From a virus (Duplodnaviria; Caudoviricetes): DNA of 64,000 nt. Location of the stretch: positions 7,375 to 71,374 of IMG/VR virus record IMGVR_UViG_3300012956_000019. One strand, given 5' to 3'. The notes under the pieces were generated by a model. It saw only the letters and a list, made by a program, of their open reading frames with translations. It did no database searches and was not told where the DNA came from. A program made the position numbers and the translations under genes. Positions 25,601 through 43,497 of the stretch are shown in pieces (within the stretch, counting starts at the first letter, position 1; each line of letters opens with the position of its first letter).

Positions 25601-26143
25601 AGAAAACAAATTGGCAACCCTTGTTGCTTCTGTGGCTTCTAATTGGTATGCATTTAATGTTGATACCACTATTCTTGTTGTTTCAGCCAAGTCATACTGT
25701 GTTGCAGCAGCAAGGTCAAGTGTACCTTTTAATGCTCCCATGACCTGATTAGCATTATAGCCAGCTGAAGCCAGATAATACATAGCATCTGCTGCTTGTG
25801 ATGCCATAAAGATAGTTGTCTCACCCATCTTTCTTGCATATTTCTCCAAGTCATCCATTTCTTTTTTGGTAGCACCTAAAACAGAAAATGTGTTTGCCAT
25901 GCTTTGTTCAAAACCAGCAAACACACTGTTTATTAAATAACCAAATCCAGCCATAGCACCAGCAACAATTGTAGTTGTCTGACCAAATTTTCTCATCTGT
26001 TCAGAACTTGAGCCCAGCTGATTAACAAATCCCTTTATATCATTTTGAGCTTGTTTTAATCCAGCTTGTAATGAAGCATAATCTGCTTTAATACCAACCC
26101 AAAGTTCCTCAATATATTTTTTTGTTCCACCAGTGTCAGGCAT
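22610..26143 (-). CDS. tail tape measure protein (TP901-type core)
   Basis: FEQSMANTFSVLGAT...ARKMGETTIFMASQAADAMYYLASAG core; long coiled coils; hydrophobic segments. Confidence 0.92.
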   Translation of the reverse strand: MPDTGGTKKYIEELWVGIKADYASLQAGLKQAQNDIKGFVNQLGSSSEQMRKFGQTTTIVAGAMAGFGYLINSVFAGFEQSMANTFSVLGATKKEMDDLEKYARKMGETTIFMASQAADAMYYLASAGYNANQVMGALKGTLDLAAATQYDLAETTRIVVSTLNAYQLEATEATRVANLFSAVISGSQATMERIGDSMKYVATQAAQLNIPLEQITAALGMLYDAGFQASQAGTYLRQGLVRLQKPTKEAQDAILSMGLSLDDVNPQMHSLVEIIKNFENAGAGAIDKGDELAKIFDVRSAGAFATLIRQGSDALDIMETKITGTSKASEMSKIQIDTFKGSWKLLESAMQETAIQIGKSLQPILRTLQFTLTNVVKAFNSLSPVFKTILSNTLAVATGFGLIVGPMALLVAKIPTLIASVTALGTAFYVSLGWVVGVSIAVTALVVAFGSITNAQQKHNDTLTESVARLKENNNRLIQQKEKQKEVIDSYVKLAETQNKTTQQVEAQKSAFNKIKVLYPSLISSTDDYNTALSRLKVTSKETAEQLESLYQKKAKLRELELRIDITKAKTDLRVLNSDIKNTETEFSKIFGTSLTKLDKSVNLSQMLPETMKSMSDWTKKGVYNIEEFRQNLQRILIDQDGSNKIMGDQEILSNSITNLEDERNELLQKQSENNGKLGTNEQKRLDVLMRTVPELDKLNAVYSDVTGMAGKQLELQTEILAKEQELKDVKEKGIKPPDKIEPIYAEPDGIPTDEEKSRVEQLEREIYELKKKSMENQLSILEQFVDDSEEAELKYYEAKYKMEQADLEFYSKQQKQKLVDLKASKQEIDNVDKLAVESGLALEDKYQKGKKDISDKWFRKNMDKKNNEFKYNLKLNSEDLIAWKETLDNKRIALEDAGKKYTDEWSSIVDAINATTDMINAPAVNKMKFGIEMFNQDKEGFDGKALEEYYLYLQKQLELTQEWSDNYVDILLQMEDVKQQITNRELERNRVLFLSIQDMATATSNAVWAGWNAMWSKYVIGAREAKNDLDAVWIAMKNAFLNAVMEALQAEITKLFFKLVASLFGPVGSVIGGAVMGAATAMPASPAGAVGADVKKTGKMIVHKDELVVPARIVRANDDKYNEAMRKGSDRKRYGTSNYNFSVVVNNPSVNDKKYWEKVVEEHVEPAFVKLKKRFD

Positions 26144-26453
26144 TGGTTGCTTCTTTCTTTTTAATTTTACTTTCCATCACTCTTTTGATTTTATTCCTTG
26201 CCTTTTCACTCATCTTCATACCTGGCAAAGACATTAATTCATACAATCCACTTCCAGTTGACTTTCCATCTTTGTTGCCATCATTGGAAATATTAACATT
26301 TGTGTTATTGTTGCCTTTATTTCTGTCATAATCCTTTTGAGCTTTGTCCTGTAATTCTACAATTTCAGTTTGACCTTCCAACAATACTCTGACCTGTCTT
26401 CTGGTCAACTTCATTATGTATTCAATTGTCCATCCATATTTTTCTGCAAGCAA
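26136..26453 (-). CDS. tail assembly chaperone, downstream (GT-like) part
   Basis: LAEKYGWTIEYIMKLTRRQV...LL typical of GT C-termini; lies in the -1 frame of the upstream chaperone. Confidence 0.65.
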   Translation of the reverse strand: MLAEKYGWTIEYIMKLTRRQVRVLLEGQTEIVELQDKAQKDYDRNKGNNNTNVNISNDGNKDGKSTGSGLYELMSLPGMKMSEKARNKIKRVMESKIKKKEATNA

Positions 26454-26473
26454 ATGTACATAACCTTTTAAGG

Positions 26474-26887
26474 TTATTTTTGGGTTGTCAGGTTTGCTTT
26501 TGTCATTGCTGAGTTCATTTCTTGCAGTTCTGATAAAAAATCATTTACATCCATAACAATTCTAACTGCTTTGGCCATTACTCCAAGTGAAAATGTTTTC
26601 TTTATTTCATCAACAGTCAATTCTGGATGCATTCTTTTCAGTGATATGAGTAAAATTTCAGCACCATTCTGAGTGTTCTCTGGTGTCCATTTAGTCATAT
26701 CAGCACCTTCAAAAAATACATTTAATTTAGTCATCAAATTTGGAATTTCTTCAAGTGGTGCTGGTGTGAAATGAAATTTCTTAATGTCCTGCTTGCCATC
26801 TGATGTTAATCCAACCAACACTGACATCTCTTTTCCAAATCCCAAAATGTCTTTTATCTCTTGTTTTTCATCAACCATGTTATCCAT
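26474..26887 (-). CDS. tail assembly chaperone (G-like)
   Basis: Between tail tube and tape measure; 137 aa, helical. Confidence 0.7.
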   Translation of the reverse strand: MDNMVDEKQEIKDILGFGKEMSVLVGLTSDGKQDIKKFHFTPAPLEEIPNLMTKLNVFFEGADMTKWTPENTQNGAEILLISLKRMHPELTVDEIKKTFSLGVMAKAVRIVMDVNDFLSELQEMNSAMTKANLTTQK

Positions 26888-27489: not shown

Positions 27490-27969
27490 TTAATTATTAC
27501 ATTGTATTATTTCATCATCAAGAACAACTTCAAATATTAAGTTTTTTGTATGAACTTCTTTTAATTCATCAGTGGTTTTCAACCCTGATATTTTGTTAAT
27601 CAACCTACATCTTAATTTTTTGCTTGGTACAGCAAGATTTAGTGATGATGGTTTCTTATTCAACAAATACTCTATTCTGGCTGTCAAATTATCTAATGTT
27701 GTTTGGGCATATGCCATATCCTTTTTGACATGTCCACTAACTGTCAACTGATATTTTTGTGTTGGTATTAACAAATCAGTTTCATATTCATCTACTTCAA
27801 AAGTCACCTGTGGAAATTCAGCACCCATCTCAAGCCTTGGTCTGTTAATATTATCACCAACATAAAAATTCATTTCTCTCATTGTATAGCCAGTGTTTGC
27901 ACTGTCTTCAGAAAGTATTTTGTAAACAGCTTCCAATAGGATATTTGTTTTTGATTCTTTAACATTCAT
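27490..27969 (-). CDS. tail terminator/completion protein
   Basis: Position before tail tube; AEFPQVTF motif. Confidence 0.6.
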   Translation of the reverse strand: MNVKESKTNILLEAVYKILSEDSANTGYTMREMNFYVGDNINRPRLEMGAEFPQVTFEVDEYETDLLIPTQKYQLTVSGHVKKDMAYAQTTLDNLTARIEYLLNKKPSSLNLAVPSKKLRCRLINKISGLKTTDELKEVHTKNLIFEVVLDDEIIQCNN

Positions 27970-28472
27970 TTGTATATCTCTAATTTGTAAGCATCAATTA
28001 TCATTTTTATTATTTCTGCTTTTTTATTAGCCAAAGCATCAGTCAAGAATGGTCTTTTGCCATCCTCTCCATGTGCTTTACCACTTCTTTGAGCACCTAT
28101 TTTCATCAACTTAGTTCCTTCATGAACATATATAGCATAATCAACATTTGTTCCATATCTGCCTTCAATAGCTGTAAATGTAAATTTGTCCAACTTGTTA
28201 GTTATTGTTCCAATCATTCTATTATGGTCAATTGGATTTTTCCAATAAACATTACCTCTAACAAGCCTGATTGATTCAGCTTCTAACACTATCAATGCTG
28301 ACTTAAATCCAGCTTTCAATTTCATATTAGATTTACTGCCATAATTTGCTATGGCATTTATAACAGCATTTGTATTCTTAACTTGAAATCCAAATGAACC
28401 ACCTGCTGAACCTTTGAAACCTTTTGGTACACTTGGCATTATGGCTCCACAATGGTGGCATATATCTGCCAA
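27966..28472 (-). CDS. HK97 gp10-like tail component
   Basis: GTNVDYAIYVHEGT...KRPFLTDA signature. Confidence 0.8.
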   Translation of the reverse strand: MADICHHCGAIMPSVPKGFKGSAGGSFGFQVKNTNAVINAIANYGSKSNMKLKAGFKSALIVLEAESIRLVRGNVYWKNPIDHNRMIGTITNKLDKFTFTAIEGRYGTNVDYAIYVHEGTKLMKIGAQRSGKAHGEDGKRPFLTDALANKKAEIIKMIIDAYKLEIYK

Positions 28473-28786
28473 TGACTATTATCAACACCACCAGGCAAAT
28501 CATCTATGTAATCAATTTTATATTTCTTCAATGAAACTGTATCCTCAACAACATCACCAACTTCAATTGTTATTCCAATTATAGGCTTGCAAAATATTAA
28601 ATGTGAACTTGAATTCATCACACCAGTTTGATTTCCATAATCAAATGATGACCTTTTATTGGTTGTTATCCTAACTTTAACAGATGTTGCAATATTCACC
28701 AAATTATTACTAACATCACCTGATGTATTCTTTATATTGGAATATCTTTTAATGTTTGCTAATCTATTTAACAACCTATCTAACAT
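28439..28786 (-). CDS. head closure/head-tail adaptor
   Basis: 115 aa beta-rich; IEVGDVV...YKIDYI; canonical position. Confidence 0.65.
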   Translation of the reverse strand: MLDRLLNRLANIKRYSNIKNTSGDVSNNLVNIATSVKVRITTNKRSSFDYGNQTGVMNSSSHLIFCKPIIGITIEVGDVVEDTVSLKKYKIDYIDDLPGGVDNSHWQIYATIVEP

Positions 28787-28789
28787 TCA

Positions 28790-29410
28790 TTACACTCCAT
28801 TGGCATAATATTCTTGTGCCCTTTTAATCATTGGAAGTAAGATTTCATCATATTCACTTTTTATATTCATGAAAGATAAATCAAATGTTTCACTGTAATC
28901 ACCTATTCTAACTGCTTTCAATCCATCACCTTCAGCTTGAGTGTCTTTAATTTTTGCCCATTTTGCTGCCATAAGTGTAGCAATTTGAGCAATTATTTCT
29001 GGCACTGTTGCATACCCATGTGTGTAAGTGACTTTGACTGAATTAAATCCCTTTTTGAATTCACCTAAACAACCTGAAACAATTGAATTTACCTTTTTTA
29101 TCAATTGAATAATTCCTGTGCTTTTATCAACCACATATGAATCAATGGATAGAACTGTGGGTGTGGATGATTGAGCATCATTAACAAGCTCAGAAACACC
29201 AATTATTGGAAAATTATTTAATATCAGTTCATCTTGATTTGACTTTCTAATATCATAATATTCAATGACATCTTGGCTCTGTTCAAATCCAGTCCACTTA
29301 ATATTTGCTTTAATCCAATTGTTAATTGTTTCTTGCATTTCTGCTGTTATATCAGTAACAACAACACCTGCTAAATTAGATGCCTTTGTCACATCACCAT
29401 AAAATGCCAT
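28790..29410 (-). CDS. head-tail connector (gp6/gp15-like)
   Basis: VKVTYTHGYATVPEIIAQIATLMA...VRIGDYSETF pattern. Confidence 0.75.
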   Translation of the reverse strand: MAFYGDVTKASNLAGVVVTDITAEMQETINNWIKANIKWTGFEQSQDVIEYYDIRKSNQDELILNNFPIIGVSELVNDAQSSTPTVLSIDSYVVDKSTGIIQLIKKVNSIVSGCLGEFKKGFNSVKVTYTHGYATVPEIIAQIATLMAAKWAKIKDTQAEGDGLKAVRIGDYSETFDLSFMNIKSEYDEILLPMIKRAQEYYANGV

Positions 29411-29491: not shown

Positions 29492-30010
29492 TCAAGACTG
29501 CATAATGTTGGATATCACCCAAACATCTCTGTACATTCCATCCTTGTATGCATACTTTCTCAACACACCATCTATTTCAAATCCACAACTTGTATAATTT
29601 AATACCCTTACATTATCTTCAGGGAACACAAATGCTTGTATCCTGTTGAAATCTATTTCTAAATTTGTAACATTTGTAATTATCCATCTGATTAACTTCT
29701 TGTCATATTTATATGCTTGAAATTGTGGTGCTACAACATAATTAACAGAACATCTTCTGTGTACCAAACTTTCTATATGGTATTGTACATATCCAATCTG
29801 ACATTCTAATTTATCATCATAAGCAATCCATATTTTATGGTTTTCATCTTTACAGTACTCATTTTCATACCAAAATTCCTGTTCCACTCTTGTTATTTGT
29901 TTTGAGTGAAAAAGATTTTTGATGACTTCTGGATGACTTCTGGTTGCTCTCAAAAATTCAAGATTTTGCCATGAGCAACCATCCTTATACAACTGTTTGA
30001 ATCTCAGCAT
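29492..30010 (-). CDS. GNAT N-acetyltransferase, PseH/RimJ-like
   Basis: LEFLRATRSHPEVIKNLF..KQITRVEQEFWY...GFEIDGVLRKY resembles PseH-type sugar N-acetyltransferases. Confidence 0.75.
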   Translation of the reverse strand: MLRFKQLYKDGCSWQNLEFLRATRSHPEVIKNLFHSKQITRVEQEFWYENEYCKDENHKIWIAYDDKLECQIGYVQYHIESLVHRRCSVNYVVAPQFQAYKYDKKLIRWIITNVTNLEIDFNRIQAFVFPEDNVRVLNYTSCGFEIDGVLRKYAYKDGMYRDVWVISNIMQS

Positions 30011-30021
30011 CAGTTAGTTCC

Positions 30022-30609
30022 TTATTGTTTTGGATATATGAAAATAATGCCTCTATTTGCTCCATCAGCTTGTTCATTATAATGATATGAATATCCATCC
30101 AAACCATATATTCTTTCAACATGTTTTTTAATAAATTCAAAAGTGTATTCTGTTCCATCACTGAACTTATCAAATCCAAAATTCTTTCCAGGCACTTTGA
30201 AATCATGAATAGCAATTAAACTATTATTCAACTTGAATTTACTTATAACAGCAAGTTCATCCAATAAAGGATTGTATTTGTGCCAGTGTGCATCAAGATA
30301 AAATAAAATTGGCTTTTCTATCTTGGTGTAAATCCCTTTAATTATTTTTTCCATCTCAACAGGTGAAGTTCCTTTCACAGCAGTGATAGGCAATTTATTT
30401 TTTGAAAAAACTTCAACAGCACCTTTGTAATATGTTTCATTTATTTCTATTGTAAAAACTTTGTTAACAATTTTACAAAATTCCATTGTTGTTCCACCAT
30501 GAAAAGTTCCTGTTTCAACAATTGTTTTAACACCAAACTTTTCTACCAATTTTACAAGTTCACCTTTAATGAAACTATCACCATTGAAACCTCTAATCAC
30601 TTCAGACAT
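30022..30609 (-). CDS. class I SAM-dependent methyltransferase
   Basis: IVETGTFHGGTT...FTIE...FYLDAHW...PLLDEL...IHDF; start at MSEVIRG. Confidence 0.75.
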   Translation of the reverse strand: MSEVIRGFNGDSFIKGELVKLVEKFGVKTIVETGTFHGGTTMEFCKIVNKVFTIEINETYYKGAVEVFSKNKLPITAVKGTSPVEMEKIIKGIYTKIEKPILFYLDAHWHKYNPLLDELAVISKFKLNNSLIAIHDFKVPGKNFGFDKFSDGTEYTFEFIKKHVERIYGLDGYSYHYNEQADGANRGIIFIYPKQ

Positions 30610-31253
30610 ATGTTTGTCCCTTCTTTTATGTTGTACCATTTTCTGTTTAATTTATCTGTGCCCCAATCTTGTTTAATTTCATAATCAAGTTTATTTTTAG
30701 GAACTAATTCATCATCCATTTCTTCATTTAATACAAATATCATATTTGTATTATTATTTTTAACAAGTGTGTATCCTTTTGATTGTCCAAGTTCTAACAA
30801 AGCATCCCAACTTGCACCATAATAAATTGTTTCATCAAATCTGTGGTTTTTATCATAAGGTATTGTCAACAACATTCCTTTTGGTAAAAATCTATTGAAT
30901 TCAACAATAACAACTCTTGGATTGTATTTCAATTCTTTCCATACCCAATAATCATTTCCATCAATATCCATAGACATCAAATCACATCCACCAATCAGCT
31001 CATATTTTTCAAATAATTCATTTATATTTGATGGCATTACCTTTTCCAAATTTACTTCTTTGCTCTTTGGGTCAATATCCCATAGAACACCTGTAAAATC
31101 CCACTGTTCTATGAAGTGTCTGGTGTTAGATAAAGCATATCCATTACCAGCACCAAACTCAACACTCTTTAGATGTTTGAATTTTATTTTATCAAATACA
31201 TCTAACAACATATATTGTTCACCAAACTGACTGTAATCTTTAACTAAATTCAT
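30597..31253 (-). CDS. FkbM-like methyltransferase
   Basis: YSQFGEQ...VEFGAGNG...SNTR...DLMSMDIDGNDYWVW...PRVVIVEFN. Confidence 0.75.
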   Translation of the reverse strand: MNLVKDYSQFGEQYMLLDVFDKIKFKHLKSVEFGAGNGYALSNTRHFIEQWDFTGVLWDIDPKSKEVNLEKVMPSNINELFEKYELIGGCDLMSMDIDGNDYWVWKELKYNPRVVIVEFNRFLPKGMLLTIPYDKNHRFDETIYYGASWDALLELGQSKGYTLVKNNNTNMIFVLNEEMDDELVPKNKLDYEIKQDWGTDKLNRKWYNIKEGTNICLK

Positions 31254-32191
31254 TTGAGTACATCCTTTTTTATTGTTTCAATTCTATTTTTCCATCTGTG
31301 ATTTTTCCACACTTCATTATATCCTTGTTTGGCAATTTCAATTCTTTCAGAATTATTTGACAAATAATAATCTATGTGTTCAATCAGTTCATCTGTTGTC
31401 TTCCACCATACCAGATGTTTTTTATTTTCAAAATCTCTTTCAATTCCATCATAATAATTTACCAAATAAAAACATCCTGATGCCATAACATTGAACAGCC
31501 TATCTGATGTGTAATGATAATTGGCTATATTGTTGATGCCAATAGCTATTTTTGAGCCCTTATAAATTGCTGGTGCTTTAGTCATCTTGACCATAACTGT
31601 TTTTCCACCCCAGCCATTTCCATACAAAGTAAATTTATCACCATATTTTTCAGCCAACAAATCTGATGTTTTCTTTTTCAATTCAGCCATAGGAAAATGT
31701 TTGTAAAAATTAGATAAAAACACAATATCATTTCCAAATTCATCATCTGGTTTGCATGACATTATAGTTTCTTCAAATCCTATTTGGATGTGATAAACAT
31801 TTTTTATTCCTTTTGACTTTAGAATCAAAACTGATTCAGCATCTGAAAATCCAGTGTGAATATTATCAGACAATTTAGCAACATCAAAATACCATTCATC
31901 AAGTGATATTGATACATCACCTGTCCAATTAAAAATAATAACACCAGGCACAATTTTTAATATTCTGCTAATTATTTCTGGTGTTATTATTCCACCCCTC
32001 TGAATTTGCATGAATATAAAATTAGGCTTGTATGATTTAACTGTATCCAATATGTATTGTTCCATTATTGTTTTACCTTTAATTGAAAAAATTTTTCTCC
32101 AATCTAAAGAACAATATTCACCCAATGATTTAATAGCTTTAATCATTGTTGTGTTATATTCAAAATTTAATCCAATGTGTAAAACTTTCAC
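31250..32191 (-). CDS. CgeB-like glycosyltransferase (Glyco_trans_1_2 type)
   Basis: IYKGSKIAIGIN...SDRLFNVMASGCFYL...EIAKQGYNEVWKNHRW. Confidence 0.8.
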   Translation of the reverse strand: MKVLHIGLNFEYNTTMIKAIKSLGEYCSLDWRKIFSIKGKTIMEQYILDTVKSYKPNFIFMQIQRGGIITPEIISRILKIVPGVIIFNWTGDVSISLDEWYFDVAKLSDNIHTGFSDAESVLILKSKGIKNVYHIQIGFEETIMSCKPDDEFGNDIVFLSNFYKHFPMAELKKKTSDLLAEKYGDKFTLYGNGWGGKTVMVKMTKAPAIYKGSKIAIGINNIANYHYTSDRLFNVMASGCFYLVNYYDGIERDFENKKHLVWWKTTDELIEHIDYYLSNNSERIEIAKQGYNEVWKNHRWKNRIETIKKDVLK

Positions 32192-33915
32192 TGGTTCAAT
32201 ACTTTCTGTTTTATTATCTCAATTCTATTTATCCATCTGTGATTTTTCCATATCTCATCATATCCTTGTTGAGCAATCTGTCTTCTTTCCTTAGCATGAT
32301 TCAAATAATAATCAACCTTTTTATCAAGTTCATCTAAATCATGCCACCAATCCAGATGATAACCTTGTTTGAATTGTTCTTCAATCCCTTCATAATAATG
32401 AGCCAAACAGAAACATCTTGAAGCCATTATATTGAATAATCTATCTGATGTGTATTTATAAGCATTTATATTGTTAATTGACAATGCTATTTTAGCACCT
32501 CTGTATATATGGGTGGAATATGATTTTGGAATGTGTTTAACACCATTCAATATTGTATCCCAACCAGTTCCATATACCTGAAATTTATCAACATATCTAA
32601 ATTTCATTTTTGCTATGACATTTTTTCTTAGTTCTGTTAATTCAAATCTGTCACCATAGTTAGTTCCTATAAAAACAATACTTGGCATATGAATTCTTTT
32701 TGATTCAGCTACATTGAAAATACCTTCTTCAAATGACATTGGCATATAAAATGAATTGCTATAACCTAAATTCAACAATGTATTAACATCTCTATAATTT
32801 GTGAATGATGTATATATGTTGTTGAATGAAGCCAAATCAATCATCCACTTTGGTGTTTCATCCCTTATATCACCACACCAATTTATTATTTTTATTTCTG
32901 GTGCAATTATATTGATGTGTTGAATTAGTTCCTTTGTTATTATATCTGGCCTCTGTATCTGCATAAATATCAAATCAATGTCATATTCATTTATTGTTTC
33001 CAATATTTTTCTATACAACATCTGTAAATTTCCATACTCAAGCTCATTTCTCCAGTCAATCAAGAAATAATTTCCAAGTGTGGATAGTGCTTTGACTAAT
33101 GTTTTTTGATATTCTGTGTTCAGTCCAATATGTAAAATAGATTTTTCACCAACAGCCTTGATTCTTTTATGTATCCTAAAATTGCCTAATAATGATGGTG
33201 TAACAAGTTGATATGGTGGTGGCACCCTTTGTACTATTCCTTTGTTTACATAATTTCTAACACCAGTATTGTGTAGATGCATTGATTTTATAGACAAAGA
33301 TGGATTTAACAGCTTGTATCCTGATGTGTGAAATTCATGAGCAATTTTATTATCACACCCAGCAACACCCATGTAAAAATTACCACCTTGAAATTTTGAA
33401 ATTTTACCTCTAAATGCCCAAACATCTTGGCTGTCTTTCCTATTGTGGAATTGTAATTCACCATTGGTTAAAACATTCCATCTTGTAAGACAATAAACAG
33501 TTTTGTTATCAAGTGTTGGTTCAATAAATCTTATTGTATCATCAAAATAAATATCTGTATTTGCTAAAATGTTTATGTCTGAATCACCACTTACACTATT
33601 TATGATTTCAAAAATATCCTTGTATTTCAATCTTTCATTAACAGATATAAATTTGAATTTATTAGAATATTTGTCAATGTTTAATGGTGAACTATGCTCA
33701 CACAATACATAAATATTTGTTATGTGGCTATTAAGAAAATTGTTGTTCAAACAATATTCATATTCCTTTAATCTTTCAGAATTATTTTCACCATACCAAC
33801 AAATAAAAAGATTTACAACACTATCAAATTCAAATGATATTTCATTTATCTTTTTTGATTCTTGATTTAGAATTGTTTTTGATTGATTTTTCAGATTTTG
33901 TAGTGTTTCTTGCAT
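32188..33915 (-). CDS. two-domain glycosyltransferase (GT-A-like + CgeB-like)
   Basis: N-terminal ANTDIYFD...CLTRWN...SQDVWAF...GCDNKIA domain; C-terminal half paralogous to 31250..32191. Confidence 0.75.
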   Translation of the reverse strand: MQETLQNLKNQSKTILNQESKKINEISFEFDSVVNLFICWYGENNSERLKEYEYCLNNNFLNSHITNIYVLCEHSSPLNIDKYSNKFKFISVNERLKYKDIFEIINSVSGDSDINILANTDIYFDDTIRFIEPTLDNKTVYCLTRWNVLTNGELQFHNRKDSQDVWAFRGKISKFQGGNFYMGVAGCDNKIAHEFHTSGYKLLNPSLSIKSMHLHNTGVRNYVNKGIVQRVPPPYQLVTPSLLGNFRIHKRIKAVGEKSILHIGLNTEYQKTLVKALSTLGNYFLIDWRNELEYGNLQMLYRKILETINEYDIDLIFMQIQRPDIITKELIQHINIIAPEIKIINWCGDIRDETPKWMIDLASFNNIYTSFTNYRDVNTLLNLGYSNSFYMPMSFEEGIFNVAESKRIHMPSIVFIGTNYGDRFELTELRKNVIAKMKFRYVDKFQVYGTGWDTILNGVKHIPKSYSTHIYRGAKIALSINNINAYKYTSDRLFNIMASRCFCLAHYYEGIEEQFKQGYHLDWWHDLDELDKKVDYYLNHAKERRQIAQQGYDEIWKNHRWINRIEIIKQKVLNQ

Positions 33916-34099
33916 TTCTGATAACCTTCTTTTCAGCTTGTGATTTTTTAACCATTGATATATTGTCTGTTGTTAATACAACTTTTTTAGCCATAACAAA
34001 ACTATCTTTATTTTCAACAAGTTCTGGCTCAGTGGCTTTTGATTCAGCCATCTTTACAGCTTGATTTAATATTAGCTTTGTGGTGTTAATTGTTCCCAT
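33842..34099 (-). CDS. small basic hypothetical protein
   Basis: 85 aa Lys-rich ORF with GGAATAG upstream; overlaps the next gene. Confidence 0.45.
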   Translation of the reverse strand: MGTINTTKLILNQAVKMAESKATEPELVENKDSFVMAKKVVLTTDNISMVKKSQAEKKVIRNARNTTKSEKSIKNNSKSRIKKDK

Positions 34100-34104
34100 G
34101 TGTT

Positions 34105-36243
34105 CTATTCCTTTTTTAATTGTCTAATGTCTTCAAATTCTTTATATGGATGGTCACTTAATACTCTTGGTAATACACCACCAAATGGTTCATCCCAACT
34201 TTTAACTTTTTGTGTTGGTTGTGTTGGCATTCCCTTCTGCCAACCAGAAACTGTATCTGTTACAAAAGTTTCTATGCCTCTATTTTTGTAATATTTTATT
34301 TTATTTTGAAGTGTATCAATTTTCCTAACATATCCAAAATGATATATGCAATCACCAACATATGGATGTTCAGTGACATATGGTTCACCAACTTTCTGTC
34401 CATCTTTATTCAAGTTGTTAAAGAAATTAAATGATTTCAGATGTCTGAATCCTGTATTCCATCTCCATACTCTTGGGTGTTGTGTACTCCATTTGCCACC
34501 AGCATCCTTTGCAACTGTTTTGAAATTCAACCAAAAATGATTAAATGGCATCCTGACAATGCTTATCTGTTTATTATTTTCCATCATATTTATTACATCA
34601 ACCAATGTCTCTGGTTTCCAAATTTCATCATGGTCAACTTTAACATAATAATCACCAGTGACTCTTTTGGCTATCTCATTTTGCATTTCAATTTTATCAT
34701 TCCAAAATTTACCTTTTTTTGATTGTACAAATTCTATCTTGTTCAATACATCAAATTGTTTTAGCTTTTCAACAATTTTTATTGTTTCATCTGTGCTATT
34801 TGGTTTGATAGCATATCCCTTTACAGCACCTTCAACAATTATAATTTGATTAACAACACTGTAAATAGATTTAACAGCATATTCAAGATAGTCAGCACCA
34901 TTGTAAACTATTATTCCAGCTGATATCTTAGGAATTTTGAAAACACTTAATAATGAATTTGTAGCATTGCCAATTAAACTAAATGACCCACCATTGCTGA
35001 CCCAATCAATTTGCTCCATAGATTGGTTGCCCTCACATATTTGTTTAATGGCTTGTATAAATTTACTCACATTGCCAGATTCAACATATTGGATGGAATT
35101 TTTGTACACTTCTTTTAACACAGGCAATTCATAAGCTATAACTGGAACACCACAATACAATGCTTCCATTGGTGGCATACCAAATCCCTCAAATGTTGTT
35201 GGAAACACCAACACACTTGCTTTGGCTATTATTCTAAATTTTTCTTCATCTGATATCTTACCATGTGTTGTAATACTAACATTATCTAATTTGTTTATGT
35301 AATCAAGTTCATCTTTCCAAATTTTACCTATTATGTCAAAATGATATTTATCATTTGAAAATTTCTTTAATACAGGAATGAGTGTTTTGAATGGTGTCAT
35401 TCTGGAAATGTAAACAACATTGTATTTATTATTGGTTGCTAAATCATGATTGCTTAATACCTTATCAGCCACAATCTGATTTATACATGGATAAATTACA
35501 TACACATCCTTGTCTGGATTTAATTTCCAAACTCTCTCATCATCTTTCATCCATTCAATCAAGTGTTTTTTACTTTCTTGGCTGATTGTTATTATCTTAT
35601 CTGCTTGAAATAAACACCCTTTATAACTTGCCCAAAATTCATTGCTGGCATCTACACCATCCCTCATTGTTTGAATCCAATTTGGTGTTTCAAATATAAT
35701 CAAATACAATGGCAACATGTATCTCTTGGCATATTCAGTGGCATGTAATCCACCTGTCACTGGACATCCTACAATCAAATCAAATTTGTTATCTGAATTA
35801 TCACCCAAGTATGTTGGTGTAGTGATGATTTCAAAATTATCATTGTAATAATCTTTGAAGTCATTATAAAATGGTGGTTTGTCATTTGTTACAACTGTTA
35901 CTTTGGTATATTGAGAAAGTAACACAGCTTGGTGAAAAATAGAATATCTGCCACCAGTGTAATGTGGCATGTGTTCTATGAAAAATGCTATGTGCTTAAA
36001 TGATTTGAGTGTATTATATGTTGGTTGTGTTATAGTCTTGTTTTTATTCATCAACAATGGTGATAGTGAAATAAGGATTGCTGATGTAATTTCATGTGAT
36101 GTGGATTTATCAATAAAAGATTTACTGATTGTGATATTGACTTCAGTTTCTGTATGAGCTATCTTGAAAGATGGTGTGTCTGATGATATATTCTTTGAAT
36201 CAACTTTATGTTGTTGTTGGTTCAAAATAAGTTTGCCTGTCAT
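34105..36243 (-). CDS. GT4-GT2 fusion glycosyltransferase
   Basis: GT4 motif FEGFGMPPMEALYCGVPVI; GT2 ISAGIIVYNG...YVKVDHDE. Confidence 0.88.
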   Translation of the reverse strand: MTGKLILNQQQHKVDSKNISSDTPSFKIAHTETEVNITISKSFIDKSTSHEITSAILISLSPLLMNKNKTITQPTYNTLKSFKHIAFFIEHMPHYTGGRYSIFHQAVLLSQYTKVTVVTNDKPPFYNDFKDYYNDNFEIITTPTYLGDNSDNKFDLIVGCPVTGGLHATEYAKRYMLPLYLIIFETPNWIQTMRDGVDASNEFWASYKGCLFQADKIITISQESKKHLIEWMKDDERVWKLNPDKDVYVIYPCINQIVADKVLSNHDLATNNKYNVVYISRMTPFKTLIPVLKKFSNDKYHFDIIGKIWKDELDYINKLDNVSITTHGKISDEEKFRIIAKASVLVFPTTFEGFGMPPMEALYCGVPVIAYELPVLKEVYKNSIQYVESGNVSKFIQAIKQICEGNQSMEQIDWVSNGGSFSLIGNATNSLLSVFKIPKISAGIIVYNGADYLEYAVKSIYSVVNQIIIVEGAVKGYAIKPNSTDETIKIVEKLKQFDVLNKIEFVQSKKGKFWNDKIEMQNEIAKRVTGDYYVKVDHDEIWKPETLVDVINMMENNKQISIVRMPFNHFWLNFKTVAKDAGGKWSTQHPRVWRWNTGFRHLKSFNFFNNLNKDGQKVGEPYVTEHPYVGDCIYHFGYVRKIDTLQNKIKYYKNRGIETFVTDTVSGWQKGMPTQPTQKVKSWDEPFGGVLPRVLSDHPYKEFEDIRQLKKE

Positions 36244-37102: not shown

Positions 37103-37130
37103 AAGCCAGACAATGTTAGTTGCCTGGCTT
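37103..37130 (-). terminator. terminator after major capsid gene
   Basis: AAGCCAGGCAA/TTGTCTGGCTT stem on minus strand, AT-rich tail. Confidence 0.7.
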
Positions 37131-37150: not shown

Positions 37151-38146
37151 TTAGCTTGCTGTGGATGGTGTATCAAGATTGTACAGCTGGCACAAAGCAC
37201 CTTTGTACATTACAGTGAAATCCATTCTTTCTGTAATGACATAAATCTTTGTGTCTTCCTGAATGTAGTCATCCTGTTTGATTCTGACCCTTCTTCTGTC
37301 ACCAATAACAGGATTGCTCTTGTGGGTTAAAACACCATAACCATCAGTACAATAAGCACTGTTGATTACAGCAACTTTACCATATAGCTTTCCAAACTCA
37401 CCAGTGAATATGGTAGCATTTGGGCCATATTTTTCAAGTGTAACAAGTTTGCTATCATCAAGCAACTGATTTGCTGACCATGGATTAAGAATGAGAACTA
37501 AATTGCTCATCACTCTGCCATACTTTCCTAAGTTAAACATTGCCTGTCTAACTAAGGCAGTGGCCATATCTGCACCACTTGCATTGACTCTGTTTGCTGC
37601 TCTTGTGTCCAAAGCTATGGAACCAGCAATGTCACCTGAAAGTGTTAGCAAGCCATTGAAAGCAAATCTGTGGTCTTTGGTGTACCATGTTACATCAGTG
37701 GCATTTGCTTCAACTGCTGTTGAAGGTGAGTGAGCTGTATCACCCTGAATCATTGCTTCCTCTTCTGCTGCAGCAAGTGTTGCAGCAAAATGCTCTCTGA
37801 TGATTGACTGCATGTCATTCTGAGCATCTTCAAGAACTTCTTCACTGGCATCCATTCTTGACATGAATTTTTTAGCTTCCAATCTGATTGTACCAGTGTT
37901 AAGATTGGTTGAATTTGCAGCACCACCTTCTGTTGACTGATAGTACACTTTTGTTCCACCTAAGATTTTTGGATAATCTCTTGTTTTTGTGGCCATAGGA
38001 ACAACTGTGAATGCCTGTCTCAAGAAGTTTTGGTCATACACATGGTTGATGAATTCTGTTGCCAATGGTGTTGGTAAAAAATCACCACCTGCTCCAGCTG
38101 ATGTGGATAATGCTTTTTTAATAGCATCATTTAATGATTTACTCAT
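37151..38146 (-). CDS. major capsid protein (HK97 fold)
   Basis: GGDFLPTPLATEFI...SEEVLED...EEEAMIQGD...GKLYGKVAVINS...ERMDF. Confidence 0.92.
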   Translation of the reverse strand: MSKSLNDAIKKALSTSAGAGGDFLPTPLATEFINHVYDQNFLRQAFTVVPMATKTRDYPKILGGTKVYYQSTEGGAANSTNLNTGTIRLEAKKFMSRMDASEEVLEDAQNDMQSIIREHFAATLAAAEEEAMIQGDTAHSPSTAVEANATDVTWYTKDHRFAFNGLLTLSGDIAGSIALDTRAANRVNASGADMATALVRQAMFNLGKYGRVMSNLVLILNPWSANQLLDDSKLVTLEKYGPNATIFTGEFGKLYGKVAVINSAYCTDGYGVLTHKSNPVIGDRRRVRIKQDDYIQEDTKIYVITERMDFTVMYKGALCQLYNLDTPSTAS

Positions 38147-38238: not shown

Positions 38239-38817
38239 TTAACTTTTGCCTGGAAAAATAACTGATTTGAAGTAATGGTCAAGTGCTTCTTTTTTCTGGT
38301 CTTTGTCTAATGAATTCAACTCTTTAGTTAATTCATCAACATCTTCATCCTCTTCATCATCACCAGAAACTTTTTTGCTGAAATTTTCATCTTCAACAAC
38401 AGTTCCTTTTTTCTTTTCTTTAATAACAAAATCAACATCAACATTTTCAGGGTCAATGCCCATTGATTTAACAAGTTCCACCATACCTGCTTTAATATCA
38501 GCTTGTTTCTTGGCCAATTCTTCAGCAGTCTTTTCATCTGATGGTTTTTCATTGAGTTTTTTGGTCAACTCTTCAACCTTTTTGGACAAATCAGAAATTG
38601 ATTTTGTCACTTCTGTTTCACCAGGTGTAGGTGTTGGTTCAGCAGGTGTTTCAGACACCACTGGTTTTTCACCTTCTGCTGGTTTGGTAGTTTCAGCTGG
38701 GTCACCATCTGCTGGTTTCTCTTTTATCTCTTTGATAACAGCATCAGCAATCTCAGTCAACTTTCCTGTAAGTGCTTTGACAATCTCATCTTTTGTTTTA
38801 CTCATTTTGTACTCCAT
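38239..38817 (-). CDS. putative scaffolding protein
   Basis: Acidic, low-complexity, coiled-coil; between protease and capsid genes. Confidence 0.6.
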   Translation of the reverse strand: MEYKMSKTKDEIVKALTGKLTEIADAVIKEIKEKPADGDPAETTKPAEGEKPVVSETPAEPTPTPGETEVTKSISDLSKKVEELTKKLNEKPSDEKTAEELAKKQADIKAGMVELVKSMGIDPENVDVDFVIKEKKKGTVVEDENFSKKVSGDDEEDEDVDELTKELNSLDKDQKKEALDHYFKSVIFPGKS

Positions 38818-38855: not shown

Positions 38856-39761
38856 TCAACCTTCAGCTGGGATGCCTAATTGTTCTTCAATTGTAGCAGT
38901 CAGTTCAGCTATCTCTGAAGCCAATTGTTCAATCTTTACAGCAAATTCATTTGCTACACCCAAAATCTTTTCTTTCTTTTGTGTTGGTGTTAAATCTGAA
39001 CTTTCAACTATTGAATACAATGTTTCCCTGAAGGCATAAAATATATCCCACATTTCATCTTTCACCTTGTTGGTTTGAACCATCTCATCTAATGTTTTGG
39101 TGAACTTCTTAACAAGGTTATCATCCACTGAATCAACATCTGTGGTGGTAGTTGAGTCAGTTTCTTTTTTTAGTTGTTCTTGAATTTCTGGCTGTGTGAA
39201 TAAATCACTGAGTGATTTTCTGATTGGTACTGTCCATGTGTCAACACCAGCAGGCATGGCTGTTAAGCTGACTTCATATATTTCACCATCTTCAATTTCT
39301 GTTATTGTTTTCTTTAACTGTTCATCAAAATATTTACTGGCTTTGGTTATTCTGCCACCAATGCTGTATCCTATTTTTGTGCCATGTTTAATTTTGTTTA
39401 GAATAGATTTAACAAGTGGATTGTCATCTTCATTTTCCAATGCTGTATCAACTACAACTGCATCACCATCATCAATTACTTCATCAATATAACCAACTGT
39501 TTTTTCAATAGAATGTTCATGTTCAGCAAATACATTTAAGCCTTGAACTGTTGATTTTATTTTATCAACAAATGCTTTGCTCATCCTCTCATCTTCTTTA
39601 TCTATTTGAGTGTTGGTTGCTGTGCCTCTCAAATATTTAACTTTGACACCATTGCTAATTTCTTTTTCAAATATCTCTATGTGTCCATTTTTTTGATTCA
39701 ATGGAATCAATGCTTTGAAAAATCCCTTATCTTTGGTGTTGTTGGCAATTGATTGTTTCAT
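38856..39761 (-). CDS. HK97-family prohead protease
   Basis: LRGTAT...FAEHEH...GYSIGG...YEVSLTAMPA catalytic motifs. Confidence 0.88.
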   Translation of the reverse strand: MKQSIANNTKDKGFFKALIPLNQKNGHIEIFEKEISNGVKVKYLRGTATNTQIDKEDERMSKAFVDKIKSTVQGLNVFAEHEHSIEKTVGYIDEVIDDGDAVVVDTALENEDDNPLVKSILNKIKHGTKIGYSIGGRITKASKYFDEQLKKTITEIEDGEIYEVSLTAMPAGVDTWTVPIRKSLSDLFTQPEIQEQLKKETDSTTTTDVDSVDDNLVKKFTKTLDEMVQTNKVKDEMWDIFYAFRETLYSIVESSDLTPTQKKEKILGVANEFAVKIEQLASEIAELTATIEEQLGIPAEG

Positions 39762-39855: not shown

Positions 39856-40068
39856 TTAGGACTGTTGTGTTTTATCTATTATTACAACATCAGGCATTTC
39901 ATATCCAATGCTGTTTAAGAATTTCACCAAATCCTTTGTTGTCTTGTCATCATCTTCCATCATCTCCATACAATTGGTATGAAACCAAATGTCTGAATTA
40001 TTATTGCTTGGGTCAGTTCCTTCAGCAACTTTATTTTTCTTTTTTTTCTTTTCAAATTCTTGAGACAT
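39856..40068 (-). CDS. small protein, candidate MuF-toxin immunity protein
   Basis: 70 aa; start overlaps the MuF stop codon. Confidence 0.5.
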   Translation of the reverse strand: MSQEFEKKKKKNKVAEGTDPSNNNSDIWFHTNCMEMMEDDDKTTKDLVKFLNSIGYEMPDVVIIDKTQQS

Positions 40069-41939
40069 TATTTCATACCTATATAATTTTTCAATATTTT
40101 AATACTATTTCCATTTTTATCTAATAACAATTCACCTCTCCACCATCCTCTATTTAACATGAAATCTTTACCACTTATTTTCACACCATTAATTGTTTTG
40201 TTATATGTAGCAAAATCCCAGCTGTGTTTGAAATTAGAAGTGTCAACAATAACACCAGCTTTTTGTTCTATGTATCCACTAAATGCTCTTGCATAATTTC
40301 TTAATGTTATGTCTGATTCAAAATCAAATCCATATTTTGCCCAAGCATATAGCCCTACATCACCATTGGCATGAACTGTTATTTTATAAACATTATATTT
40401 CTCATAAAATTGAATTTGATTTCTAAATAATTCTTTACCAATTTGCCTATTTTGAAAAGCACCTTCAAGAAAAAATGAATCATGATCAACAATAAGTTTC
40501 TCTGATATTTGTTTTCCTTCAGTAACAATTGACCTTCTTTGAAAATTTCTATGAAATGAACCTATTTCATCACCAGATTTATATGATTTTTCGTGTAATA
40601 TTTGTTTGCTTTCACCATATCTTGTTTCTGTTGTGTACCACTGCAAATTATTGTAATCTTTTTGAGCTTTTAAGTGACCAGACACTCTGAAATTATCTCT
40701 GCCAAGTGGCATTATTTCAACATCTGTCTTAAATTCTGAACCTGTATTGAATGCTTTTTGAAAATCTTCATAAAATATTTTTTGTTCTTGTTTAATACCT
40801 AAAATTGATTTGATGTCATTCTCAAATTCCAATGCTTCTTTTTCAGCTGATCCATTCTCCATAAAATAATCTTTCATGGATGTCTGATTGGCCAATGCTA
40901 TGTTTTCTGCCGCAAGCAATTTGGCTTCATCAAAAGTTTCTGTTGCTAATAATGGCACCCATTGGCATCTACAATTGGCGTGTTGTGGTATTACACCACT
41001 TGCTTGTTCCAATGTATAAATCATCCCTTCAAGCCCAGCGCAAATTGGACACAATCTCTCATCTGGTGAAGTGCTAAATTGTACACGATCTACAACACCA
41101 GATTGCTTAAATCCATCTAATCTGCCTGCATTATAAGCACCATTTATTTCTGTTCTTGCTACAGTATTTGCCCAATGTTTTGGTGACATCTGATATGAAT
41201 AACCTTGTCTGATCACAGTTCCATCTGGTGATATTCTTGGTGGAACTTTAACATCAATTGGTTTATTCCATAATGCCAAAATATTTTTTCTAACTTCAGG
41301 AATGCTATCACCATTTTTAATAGCTTCCAACAAAGTGTATTTTATATTGCTTGAAATCTCTTTACTAACTTGTTCAGAAAGTTTCAATATGTAGTTGTTA
41401 AAAAATTTCTCAACATTCTTATCTCTGAGTGCAAAATCTATTCCAACATCAAAAATACCAAATACAGTGTTTCCACCCATGTTGTAAGAATCAAATACAC
41501 TGTGTGAAATTGCTTCATTGAATGGGTCAGGATTGATGAATGATATACTGTTGATGGTCTTGTCCACACCTGATTTATTTAGCCAATCTCTCATCTCCAC
41601 TGAAAATGTAAATTCCTTAAATCTGGTGATGCCAACAGTTGTATATTTCACCCTTGGTTCAAGTGGAATGTTTTCAAGTTGAACAATACTATCTTTTATG
41701 AACTTTTGGGTGTAAATTTTCTCCAATTGATTTAGCTTTGACAGAACTTCTTTTTGAGCATTGTCAAAAGCTATAATCAATTGCAATTCAAGTTTCTCTT
41801 CAGCCAATATAATCCAATCATAATACCTCTTTTGTATGTCTGATTTTTTCTTGGCCAATCTTTCAACAATAGAAAGTGTTTCAAGAAATTTTCCAACATC
41901 CTGAACCTTCATTGGTGGTGTTAAACTTAATTTATTCAT
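40068..41939 (-). CDS. MuF/SPP1 gp7-like head morphogenesis protein with GNAT-like C-terminal extension
   Basis: TVARTEINGAYN...DERLCPIC...PQHANCRC MuF core; C-terminal FQNRQIGKELF...HANGDVGLYAWAKYGF. Confidence 0.85.
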   Translation of the reverse strand: MNKLSLTPPMKVQDVGKFLETLSIVERLAKKKSDIQKRYYDWIILAEEKLELQLIIAFDNAQKEVLSKLNQLEKIYTQKFIKDSIVQLENIPLEPRVKYTTVGITRFKEFTFSVEMRDWLNKSGVDKTINSISFINPDPFNEAISHSVFDSYNMGGNTVFGIFDVGIDFALRDKNVEKFFNNYILKLSEQVSKEISSNIKYTLLEAIKNGDSIPEVRKNILALWNKPIDVKVPPRISPDGTVIRQGYSYQMSPKHWANTVARTEINGAYNAGRLDGFKQSGVVDRVQFSTSPDERLCPICAGLEGMIYTLEQASGVIPQHANCRCQWVPLLATETFDEAKLLAAENIALANQTSMKDYFMENGSAEKEALEFENDIKSILGIKQEQKIFYEDFQKAFNTGSEFKTDVEIMPLGRDNFRVSGHLKAQKDYNNLQWYTTETRYGESKQILHEKSYKSGDEIGSFHRNFQRRSIVTEGKQISEKLIVDHDSFFLEGAFQNRQIGKELFRNQIQFYEKYNVYKITVHANGDVGLYAWAKYGFDFESDITLRNYARAFSGYIEQKAGVIVDTSNFKHSWDFATYNKTINGVKISGKDFMLNRGWWRGELLLDKNGNSIKILKNYIGMK

Positions 41940-43497
41940 TTATTTTTGTAACCTTATCAGCTGGAAATGTATATGTCTTGCTCAAAAATTGTTCCCTGTC
42001 ATTAATTATCTGCTCAACAATAGCCAATCTTTGACTTGGCTCCATTGTTTCCCAGCCAACAGGTGTCTGATTGTCTTCTGACAAATACTTAGTCAACAAC
42101 GATCTGCTAATCAAATTAACATTTGGAACATTGCCTGCTTGTGGTGTTTTATCAACAGCATTTGGATCACCAGGCACTGATTGTCCATTTGGTCCAATTC
42201 CAAATGGTGCAACATTATTCTGTAAATAAGGAACATCACCCCAAGGAACAGGCATCAAGCCCAATGCTGTTGTTCTTATCTCATTTATTGTAATAACACC
42301 TTTATCCAAATACATTTGATGCCATTCAGCTTGATCCTTTTTATCAATAATGTCCAAATCAAAATCTAAATACACATCAGTCATTCCTAATGCTGTTTTA
42401 TCAAATATAATATGCTTGTTGTATTTATCTGTAAATGATACCATGTGTGGTTTTACAGCATCAATCTTAAATTGTTTGACTTGTTCAGTGACTGAACCTT
42501 TTGCTGCACTTCCAATTTCAACACCTAAAACAACTGGTTGCATTTTATAAACAGCCATGATCTTTTGTAACAACATTTTACTGTATTCTTGAAATTGCAT
42601 TTCTTCATTGCTCATTCCAACTTTCTGAAATGATATTTTACCATTTTCAGTTCCTATGACAATTGGTCTATGTGGCTGACCTCTCAATTCAGTGTCCCAC
42701 CATGTTCTAAATCTTGTCAATGCTGTCTGACCTTGTCCTGTTCCAAGCCCTTCCATCAATACAGCAAATCTTGGTGTAGCATTATTGTAAAAGAAATCAA
42801 GATTAAATTGGCTGGAATATAATTCAGCTGTTACAGTTTGGATAAGTGATTCAAGTGGTGATAATCCATACAGCCTATCTGATTGTGGATTAAGTTTATA
42901 ATACAATAGTTGATTTTTTTTCCATGATGTTATCTTTTTCATGTGTCTATCAACTTGAATATAGGCTTCATCTTCTTTCAACAATCCTTTTTCATCAGCA
43001 TTTATCTTAACTGTATTGCCAGGTACAGCATAAATTTCAACTAATTTCTTGCCTTTATTCAAGTCAGCACCTCTGACTATTTCCATTGACCCAGCATCAT
43101 ATACCAAAATGTCTCTGGCAATTTTTTTCCTTATCTCTGTCAAAGTTTCATAATTTGAATTTGGTTTTTCAAGAAGTTCTGAAACCAAATCCATGTTCTT
43201 TTTAGTTTCATCAGAAAGTTTTGCCTCACTCTGATCTGATCTTAATCTCAGTGGTTTAACTAATGGTGCCACCTCTGTTATTCTTTCAATAGTTTTATCA
43301 ACTATTGCTCTCACCCATGTATTACTGATATACATCATTTTCATTTGTGGAAATGACAAGCCCTTGACAGCAAGTTTCTCTGCATATGCTACATTCCCTG
43401 ATCCACCAACTCTGCCCAATGACAATTCATCACTATCAATGGAACTTTCTTTTGTGTTGGCTTTGTAGAAAAAAGATTTTGAAAAATTTATCATCAC
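41932..43497 (-). CDS. portal protein (HK97/lambda-type)
   Basis: YGLSPLESL...FFYNNATPRFAV...GVITINEIR. Confidence 0.9.
   Translation of the reverse strand: MMINFSKSFFYKANTKESSIDSDELSLGRVGGSGNVAYAEKLAVKGLSFPQMKMMYISNTWVRAIVDKTIERITEVAPLVKPLRLRSDQSEAKLSDETKKNMDLVSELLEKPNSNYETLTEIRKKIARDILVYDAGSMEIVRGADLNKGKKLVEIYAVPGNTVKINADEKGLLKEDEAYIQVDRHMKKITSWKKNQLLYYKLNPQSDRLYGLSPLESLIQTVTAELYSSQFNLDFFYNNATPRFAVLMEGLGTGQGQTALTRFRTWWDTELRGQPHRPIVIGTENGKISFQKVGMSNEEMQFQEYSKMLLQKIMAVYKMQPVVLGVEIGSAAKGSVTEQVKQFKIDAVKPHMVSFTDKYNKHIIFDKTALGMTDVYLDFDLDIIDKKDQAEWHQMYLDKGVITINEIRTTALGLMPVPWGDVPYLQNNVAPFGIGPNGQSVPGDPNAVDKTPQAGNVPNVNLISRSLLTKYLSEDNQTPVGWETMEPSQRLAIVEQIINDREQFLSKTYTFPADKVTKINE

Follow-up and report, generated by a model that had tools for sequence, protein, structure and literature searches.

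A six-gene glycosyltransferase island next to the capsid gene of an uncultured phage: a predicted O-glycosylation system for capsid and tail tube

Described glycosylation systems and the present locus

To our knowledge, virion glycosylation has been demonstrated experimentally for mycobacteriophages only, where it shields the particles from antibodies. Here we analyze a cluster of six enzyme genes, further referred to as the island, which is located between the major capsid gene and the head-tail adaptor gene of an uncultured phage. The stretch under study (the window) comprises 64 kb of the 71.4-kb IMG/VR record IMGVR_UViG_3300012956_000019, for which CheckV gives a completeness of 81%. We consider it quite probable that the island is a phage-encoded cytoplasmic O-glycosylation system, predicted to act on the C-termini of the capsid protein and the tail tube protein. 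Phage self-glycosylation as such is already known; here it would be carried out with unrelated enzymes and in uncultured environmental phages.

The closest described systems are those of Che8- and Corndog-type phages, whose capsid and tail tube are reported to carry C-terminal glycans (Freeman 2023, Cell Host Microbe 31:1216, as cited in PMC12619734 and PMC11600133). PMC12619734, PMC11600133 and PMC12363180 name gp108-110 of Che8 and gp35-38 of Corndog as O-glycosylation genes and also mention Myrna, and for cluster O phages secondary sources describe three tandem glycosyltransferases downstream of an O-methyltransferase. In the deposited genomes the capsid protein and the tail tube protein of both phages end in serine: Che8 gp6 in ..NKTGS and gp11 in ..YSDGS, Corndog gp41 in ..PLVGS and gp49 in ..IKGDS. 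None of their portal, protease, scaffold and adaptor proteins has such an end. Corndog gp35-38 (a methyltransferase and three glycosyltransferases) are encoded in the head module, just upstream of the protease and capsid genes.

The window resembles these phages in two respects. Soluble phage-encoded glycosyltransferases and a methyltransferase or methyltransferase-like protein are placed with the structural genes (for Corndog in the head module), and both capsid and tail tube have a terminal Ser, where the window phage is predicted to bear its glycan. Differences concern the enzymes as well as the phages. The core enzyme of the window is a two-domain fusion of a GT4 and a GT2 glycosyltransferase (GT), further called the fusion, for which no sequence likeness to Corndog gp36-38 was detectable, and the island is larger and hypervariable. 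Moreover, the window phages are uncultured and environmental, are known from sequence alone and are not actinobacteriophages; the GC content of the window is ~30%. As predicted, the window system is like the mycobacteriophage system in its tags (the Ser ends) and its gene placement, and is outside that enzyme family.

Other known systems share single features with the island. GmaR (the Listeria flagellin O-GlcNAc transferase, GT2), the peptide S-glycosyltransferases SunS and ThuS (GT2) and GtfA/Gtf1 (GT4, acting on serine-rich adhesins) are soluble enzymes that use a nucleotide sugar to attach the first sugar directly to a Ser, Thr or Cys of a protein, be it folded or unfolded, and the fusion can be likened to them. 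The likeness, however, is only at the general level of the GT2 and GT4 domains (E 1e-7 to 1e-3), and the fusion is without tetratricopeptide repeats (TPR) or another known acceptor-binding module. By profile, GmaR (1.6e-7) is the best match of its GT2 domain among solved proteins. In a single-sequence PDB search the best match is SpsA (weak, E 0.003, with different acceptors), followed by SunS, and Gtf1 is also among the matches. SpsA and CgeB of Bacillus subtilis act on the spore surface and thereby, like the proposed system, decorate a dormant, dispersing particle. The PF13524 domain of CgeB is present in the island proteins of 313 and 575 amino acids (aa), but the N-terminal DUF3880, which we take to be part of CgeB proper, was not detected in either of them (Pfam, E up to 0.01). 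The sequence-only reading had called both proteins CgeB-like, and this holds for the PF13524 domain while the rest of the likeness does not.

Loci for O-antigen and capsule are alike in organisation, with a conserved initiating enzyme followed by a variable cassette of glycosyltransferase and tailoring genes. In contrast to these the island is without lipid carrier, flippase, polymerase or ligase, and its predicted acceptor is a protein. Giant viruses (chloroviruses, mimiviruses) glycosylate their capsids or fibrils autonomously (PMC4691112). There, too, virus-encoded cytoplasmic glycosyltransferases and tailoring enzymes decorate the virus's own structural proteins, although these are eukaryotic viruses with another capsid fold and other linkages. 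The nearest ESM Atlas clusters of the N-terminal domain of the 575-aa protein are largely Nucleocytoviricota, which we treat as a lead only.

The fusion enzyme and the serine ends of capsid and tail tube

Both domains of the fusion score above the curated cut-offs (PF00534 65.6 bits against 26.4; PF00535 32.8 bits against 23.3), and its EX7E motif (E352 and E360 in FEGFGMPPME) and acidic DxD-type motif (D537, D539 and E540 in VDHDE) are invariant in 20 homologs. The GT4-GT2 fusion, already proposed by the sequence-only reading, is thus confirmed. A conserved C-terminal extension of 150 residues has no named counterpart. More than 120 homolog clusters are present in a metagenomic protein collection, where they have at most generic glycosyltransferase labels and no specific one. 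By a profile scan, at least 107 viral contigs of IMG/VR carry relatives, whereas the same profile found no full-length fusion in 185,579 prokaryotic species genomes (one per species), with generic matches to the GT4 domain only. On the basis of these scans we read the full-length family as phage-restricted.

To describe the surroundings of the fusion we use 80 fetched records, in 63 of which a PF05065 capsid gene was located. Records are numbered G000 (that of the window), G001 and onwards (relatives), and fetched loci or sequences carry L numbers. In 58 of the 63 records the fusion starts on the strand of the capsid gene, 0.15-4.6 kb downstream of it, and usually comes immediately 3' of it or with one small open reading frame (ORF) in between. 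This adjacency is seen in two very different capsid clades (~330 aa and ~460 aa) and in phages with a GC content from 30% to 62%. The other 5 records have the fusion 14-20 kb upstream of a capsid gene for 593-660 aa, and their capsid proteins are still Ser-ended.

Capsid proteins end in Ser in 55 of the 57 distinct sequences that come with a fusion, against 12 of the 44 from relatives without it (counted after correcting two truncated fusion genes). Within clade 1 all fusion-bearing relatives have the terminal Ser (27/27), while those without the fusion end in ..GIDTV or ..GINTI, about 4 residues shorter than the ..P-S-x-x-S ends. Clade 2 offers a direct contrast: the capsid of L233, with the fusion, ends in ..SDVAS and that of L244, without it, in ..TDAL; the two share 62% identity and are flanked by the same genes. 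A 73-aa ORF is found in L244 where L233 has the fusion.

The tail tube shows the same tendency. Its end is D-x-S in all 12 fusion-bearing phages compared (the window and 11 orthologs, ~40-67% identical to that of the window). Across 16 protein families present in at least 5 of 7 related genomes, an invariant last residue is seen in the capsid and the tail tube only, and in both it is Ser. No homolog of the tail tube family of the window was detectable in phages lacking the fusion, so this family offers no comparison with and without the enzyme, and a proteome-wide comparison in clade 2 yielded only four shared families and hence does not cover the tails. The Ser-ended capsid (..DTPSTAS) and tail tube (..VGDVS) had been put forward earlier as candidate acceptors. 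Their near-invariant Ser in the presence of the fusion and the parallel with Che8 and Corndog strengthen this prediction. We found no published description of the fusion family or of the Ser-end rule in the literature.

Island enzymes, predicted pathway and rival explanations

As first read, six co-oriented genes lie between the capsid and the head-tail connector genes; all are on the minus strand (Table 1). Counted from the 575-aa gene down to the GNAT gene, the spacing is -4, -4, -13 and +11 nucleotides (nt). Together the six genes encode five glycosyltransferase domains, two methyltransferase-like proteins and one GNAT acetyltransferase, and none of the six enzymes has a membrane segment (maximum Kyte-Doolittle value over 19 residues, KD(19), at most 1.64).

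The C-terminal half of the 575-aa protein matches PF13524 with 88.3 bits against a cut-off of 25, and orthologs are present in G001 and G002. Its N-terminal 255 aa match nothing in Pfam or in profile and single-sequence PDB searches. An AlphaFold2 (AF2) model based on an alignment of 29 homologs (predicted local distance difference test, pLDDT, 88.9) shows a GT-A fold, with Foldseek probability 1.0 to chondroitin synthase, the WrtF fucosyltransferase, ppGalNAc-T (polypeptide GalNAc-transferases) and SunS. By this model the region is a novel GT-A-fold domain. The earlier description of the protein as a GT-A-like plus CgeB-like fusion therefore agrees with the modelled fold and the PF13524 match, as does the total of five domains. 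The 313-aa protein is 42-44% identical to the C-terminal halves of the 575-aa orthologs and is a paralog of this C-domain.

Two proteins had been designated as S-adenosylmethionine (SAM) methyltransferases. Their likeness to methyltransferases stands, with evidence that is below threshold for the 205-aa protein and comes via ESM Atlas neighbours for the 218-aa protein. The latter has no match in Pfam or in profile and single-sequence PDB searches, nor a homolog in the loci fetched from relatives. Because sequence searches gave nothing for this protein and for the N-domain of the 575-aa protein, structure-based tools were needed in both cases. The 205-aa protein has weak class I methyltransferase matches in the PDB. 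Its orthologs in G001 and G002 (53-55% identity) begin at its residue 11-15, and judging from this alignment the true start is probably M11, at 30609.

For the 172-aa GNAT the best NCBIfam match is PseH (TIGR03585, 1e-9), at 38.7 bits against an equivalog cut-off of 93.1, and the best PDB matches are diamine/spermidine N-acetyltransferases. The ortholog in G024 (44%) is encoded directly 3' of a DegT aminotransferase gene and an amino-sugar substrate is therefore favoured; the protein is probably an amino-sugar N-acetyltransferase. Of the earlier label, a PseH-like N-acetyltransferase, the GNAT assignment and PseH as best NCBIfam match remain. The score, however, is far below the PseH cut-off and a companion PseB/PseC pathway is missing from the window record; in relatives, orthologous GNATs are encoded behind a DegT gene.

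What follows the fusion differs between relatives. In G001 these are a GT-A/PF13524 protein, a pyruvyl transferase, a methyltransferase and a GNAT; in G024 two PF13524 enzymes, a methyltransferase, a DegT aminotransferase and a GNAT; in G003 two PF13524 enzymes, three GT2 enzymes, two methyltransferases and DegT; in G005 PF13524 and GT2 enzymes; and in G007 PF13524 enzymes, a methyltransferase and a DegT aminotransferase. All variable genes are of glycan-tailoring types and they differ even between close relatives. G001, the closest island relative, has a polysaccharide pyruvyl transferase (L179:12358-13170, PF04230 1.6e-12) in place of the 313-aa and 218-aa genes of the window, which is a clean cassette swap in an otherwise orthologous island. 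G010 (L379, C1:16000-22000) is the minimal case: a capsid gene (..QPTSTS), the fusion as sole glycan gene with no other gene before the adaptor, then the neck genes and the tail tube (..DAGDAS). As far as gene content can tell, a conserved enzyme, which would initiate the glycan, is followed by elongating and tailoring enzymes that diversify. Some large ORFs without Pfam match also occur in the capsid-adaptor region of relatives (692 aa in G001, L179:5711-7789; 924 aa in G024, L194:2985-5759), and G001 carries two NAD-dependent sugar epimerase/dehydratase genes outside the island, at 29.9-32.9 kb.

Starting from direct observations (domain content, synteny, phage-restricted distribution, conserved Ser ends and the resemblance to Che8 and Corndog), we infer the target, site, enzyme order, sugars and biological benefit as follows. 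The soluble enzymes would be made together with the structural proteins. Since the fusion is the sole enzyme that is universally kept, it must hold the protein-directed step: it would recognise short exposed C-terminal tails (capsid ..P-S-T-A-S-COOH, tail tube ..G-D-V-S-COOH) and start the glycan, most likely on the terminal Ser, using nucleotide sugars of the host. The 575-aa GT-A/PF13524 protein and its 313-aa PF13524 paralog would lengthen the glycan, the two methyltransferase-like proteins would provide O-methylation and the GNAT would N-acetylate an amino sugar. In HK97-fold capsids (used in the T7 and P22 display systems) and in siphophage tail tubes (with C-terminal Ig-like decorations) both C-termini point outward, and a glycan at these positions would therefore coat the particle. 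The outcome would be a particle with head and tail under a lineage-specific glycan coat.

A broader proposal, to which we give somewhat less than an even chance, is that the terminal Ser on capsid and tail tube is a general, convergent "glycosylate me" tag of tailed phages, read by unrelated sets of enzymes. The GT4-GT2 fusion would read the tag here and the Che8/Corndog enzymes would do so in actinobacteriophages, with the fusion marking a large, unrecognised group of environmental phages (host GC 30% to 62%) that bear lineage-specific glycans on heads and tails. These glycans would diversify like O-antigens, suggesting a selective agent that reads phage surface sugars outside the animal immune system. 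The predicted system itself would supply an enzyme-tag pair, the fusion and an x-x-S-COOH end on capsid and tail tube, from widespread uncultured phages quite unlike those with demonstrated glycosylation. If it is confirmed, sugar-coated phage particles would be a common thing in nature, the orphan enzyme family, a large one, would obtain a function, and a single enzyme with one short tag would make up a minimal two-part means of displaying glycans on capsids. The question would also arise what drives phage glycan diversification in water and soil.

Several observations weigh against glycosylation of the Ser ends by the island. Capsid trees, built with the last eight residues removed, show one change of fusion state in clade 1 and approximately 4 in clade 2; the co-variation between Ser and enzyme rests on about 5 independent contrasts and a sign test cannot reach significance. 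A raw Fisher test relating the terminal Ser to the presence of the fusion (p ~4e-13) was rejected as a measure of evidence, with tree-independent pairs amounting to just 1 + 3-4; because independent contrasts are few, the raw 2x2 table overstates the evidence. L056 and L083 carry the fusion and have a capsid that is not Ser-ended, and by chance 10 of the 85 window ORFs end in Ser. A distant capsid subclade of clade 2 (L253-L264, L268; G103-G110, G113) is Ser-ended (..GGGS, ..SDPS, ..GGVS) with the fusion nowhere in its records. Other glycosyltransferase genes are present in 4 of the 5 records checked from this subclade (a 523-555-aa GT2 protein in 3 of the 5, and GT1 genes 2.8 kb downstream of the capsid gene in one). 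These may serve the same Ser tag as a second enzymatic solution, which fits the broader proposal. Corndog gp36, gp37 and gp38 have no similarity to the fusion profile (hhalign probability 0.1-0.4%), and gp38 has none to the profile of the GT-A N-domain (0.1-0.4%). Finally, the GNAT is equally close to polyamine acetyltransferases and to PseH, which sequence cannot separate, and no DegT/PseC aminotransferase or sugar dehydratase that could supply an amino sugar was found in the window record (G000).

One alternative, which we hold to be unlikely, keeps the virion proteins as target and moves the site: glycans would be attached to Ser/Thr upstream or elsewhere on the surface, with the terminal Ser as a recognition tag, or one protein only would be modified. 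Indeed most capsid tails have more Ser/Thr at -3 or -4 (PSTAS, PSTWS, GSGS). Some capsid tails, however, are without any other hydroxyl residue (..PDAAS, ..ANIAS, ..KPPAS), and in the tail tube ends GDVS, GDIS and GDAS the terminal Ser is the sole one in the last four residues. The terminal position is also the only invariant one.

Decidedly less likely, in our view, is that the enzymes remodel a host glycan during infection (lipopolysaccharide (LPS), capsule or another envelope polymer), which could serve to block superinfection or to keep progeny off debris, and that the Ser ends are unrelated. The gene types GT4, GT2, PF13524, pyruvyl transferase, DegT and GNAT commonly make up polysaccharide loci, and a membrane-anchored coiled-coil protein is encoded beside the fusion in the window and four close relatives. 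This membrane protein, however, is not conserved in the slot between capsid gene and fusion. The island is without polyprenyl-phosphate transferase, flippase, polymerase and membrane glycosyltransferase (Pfam), and its enzymes, as noted, have no membrane segment. Furthermore, the fusion family is missing from the cellular genomes scanned while it is fixed beside capsid genes in very different phages, and the invariant Ser on capsid and tail tube would be left unexplained.

It is very improbable that the product of the island is a free or lipid-linked oligosaccharide or a modified small molecule and that its position behind the capsid gene is no more than a permissive insertion site. Accessory genes are known to accumulate at the capsid-adaptor junction, and the slot does hold unrelated genes in relatives, such as the 692-aa ORF of G001 and the 924-aa ORF of G024. 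Left unexplained would be that one enzyme family keeps its position across three capsid clades, that this family is restricted to phages, and that a fixed Ser end occurs in capsid and tail tube alone.

Scarcely credible is glycosylation of hypermodified phage DNA bases to evade restriction, as in T-even phages or 5-hydroxymethylcytosine (5hmC) glycan arrays: multi-glycosyltransferase arrays decorating DNA are known in phages (bioRxiv 10.1101/2023.12.21.572611), but G000 and four relatives (of which three are at least 92% complete) have no PF00303 (thymidylate-synthase/dCMP-hydroxymethylase), PF00145 (C5 methylase) or PF01702 (TGT/DpdA), with a search for Tet/JBP (PF12851) being uninformative, the genes are in the head-to-tail operon and apart from the replication genes, the pyruvyl transferase and sugar methyltransferases of relatives fit glycan tailoring, and the near-complete avoidance of the CG dinucleotide (53 against 1438 expected) fits sequence avoidance rather than masking of bases. 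A virion protein had been favoured over DNA from the outset, and the place in the structural operon and the lack of known DNA-base precursor enzymes in these genomes agree with this. At the level of sequence, glycosylation of virion proteins is supported, with the glycan itself as a prediction.

Surrounding genes and further observations

Coordinates of the island and of the late operon around it are collected in Table 1. Almost all genes of the window are on the minus strand. The tail tube gene precedes the chaperone-like ORFs and the tape measure gene, and structure comparison, which the sequence-only reading had suggested, retrieved the tail tube fold of the 149-aa protein as well as the GT-A fold described above.

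Table 1. Features of the late operon and the glycosylation island in the window (positions are those of the window)
Feature	Position	Strand	Evidence or remark
Terminase	45211-46956		late operon
Portal	41932-43497		late operon
MuF	40068-41939		late operon
Protease	38856-39761		late operon
Scaffold-like gene	38239-38817		late operon
Major capsid protein, 331 aa, HK97-type	37151..38146	-	PF05065 2.4e-18; phrog major head protein; end ..LDTPSTAS
Terminator-like hairpin, 11-bp stem	37103..37130	-	directly 3' of capsid stop codon; consensus scan only
Coiled-coil protein, 227 aa, one C-terminal membrane segment	36366..37049	-	maximum KD(19) 2.18, residues 192-210
Glycosylation island (predicted), six enzyme genes	29492-36243	-	between capsid gene and head-tail adaptor
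GT4-GT2 fusion glycosyltransferase, 712 aa	34105..36243	-	PF00534 5e-18 + PF00535 8e-8
Doubtful Lys-rich ORF, 85 aa	33842..34099	-	inside island; plausible ribosome-binding site; overlaps start of 575-aa gene by 74 nt
Two-domain glycosyltransferase, 575 aa: GT-A-fold N-domain (model) and PF13524 (CgeB-type GT-B) C-domain	32188..33915	-	PF13524 6e-25
PF13524 (CgeB-type) glycosyltransferase, 313 aa	31250..32191	-	PF13524 5.8e-26, 91.6 bits against cut-off 25
FkbM-like (Methyltransf_21) putative sugar methyltransferase, 218 aa	30597..31253	-	ESM Atlas neighbours carry PF05050, score 0.96, TM 0.86
Class I methyltransferase-like protein (CmcI/rhamnosyl O-methyltransferase-like), 205 aa	30022..30639	-	PF04989 (RMNT_CmcI) 6.4e-4, below cut-off
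GNAT N-acetyltransferase, 172 aa	29492..30010	-	PF00583 above cut-off
Head-tail adaptor	28790..29410	-	phrog_442 5.7e-15; downstream island boundary
Neck genes	27490-28786		late operon
Tail tube protein, 149 aa	27014..27463	-	end ..IDVGDVS; AF2 model, Foldseek probability 1.0 to siphophage tail tube proteins
Two chaperone-like ORFs	26136-26887		late operon
Tape measure	22610-26143		late operon

DNA and protein searches of an isolate phage collection revealed no relative of the island, and none of the isolate phages resembles the window phage at the DNA level. The best matches of the capsid protein in this collection are T5-like and Aeromonas phage capsids, at just 21-24% identity. A scan for sigma-70 promoters gave 84 matches in the window against 78.6 in shuffled sequences and thus did no better than chance; the host may use other promoters. 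The hairpin behind the capsid gene may, as its sequence suggests, attenuate read-through into the downstream enzyme genes.

The 227-aa coiled-coil protein is encoded inside the head module, in the slot between capsid gene and fusion, and was missing from the sequence-only reading. Similar tail-anchored proteins occupy this slot in L004, L014, L020 and L059, whereas L009 has a protein with an N-terminal membrane segment instead. In clade-2 phages the slot holds a soluble protein of 129-160 aa, ending in ..VEVIG in several, and in other relatives it contains unrelated proteins or is empty. It is uncertain whether the 227-aa protein is part of the glycosylation system.

The 85-aa ORF inside the island, likewise missing from the sequence-only reading, has no family match, nor a homolog in any of the fetched loci, and in G001 there is no room for it because the genes on either side are contiguous. 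The motif KLILNQ occurs both at its N-terminus and at that of the fusion, and the 575-aa protein has TILNQ at residues 14-18. A DNA repeat as origin of this ILNQ motif in three consecutive ORFs was rejected, since the codons differ; the motif is probably due to chance, or else a relic of module shuffling.

While CG is depleted as described above against the base-composition expectation, the GC dinucleotide occurs 1564 times in the window. Because the island has the same CG depletion as the rest of the window, it is not a recent import.

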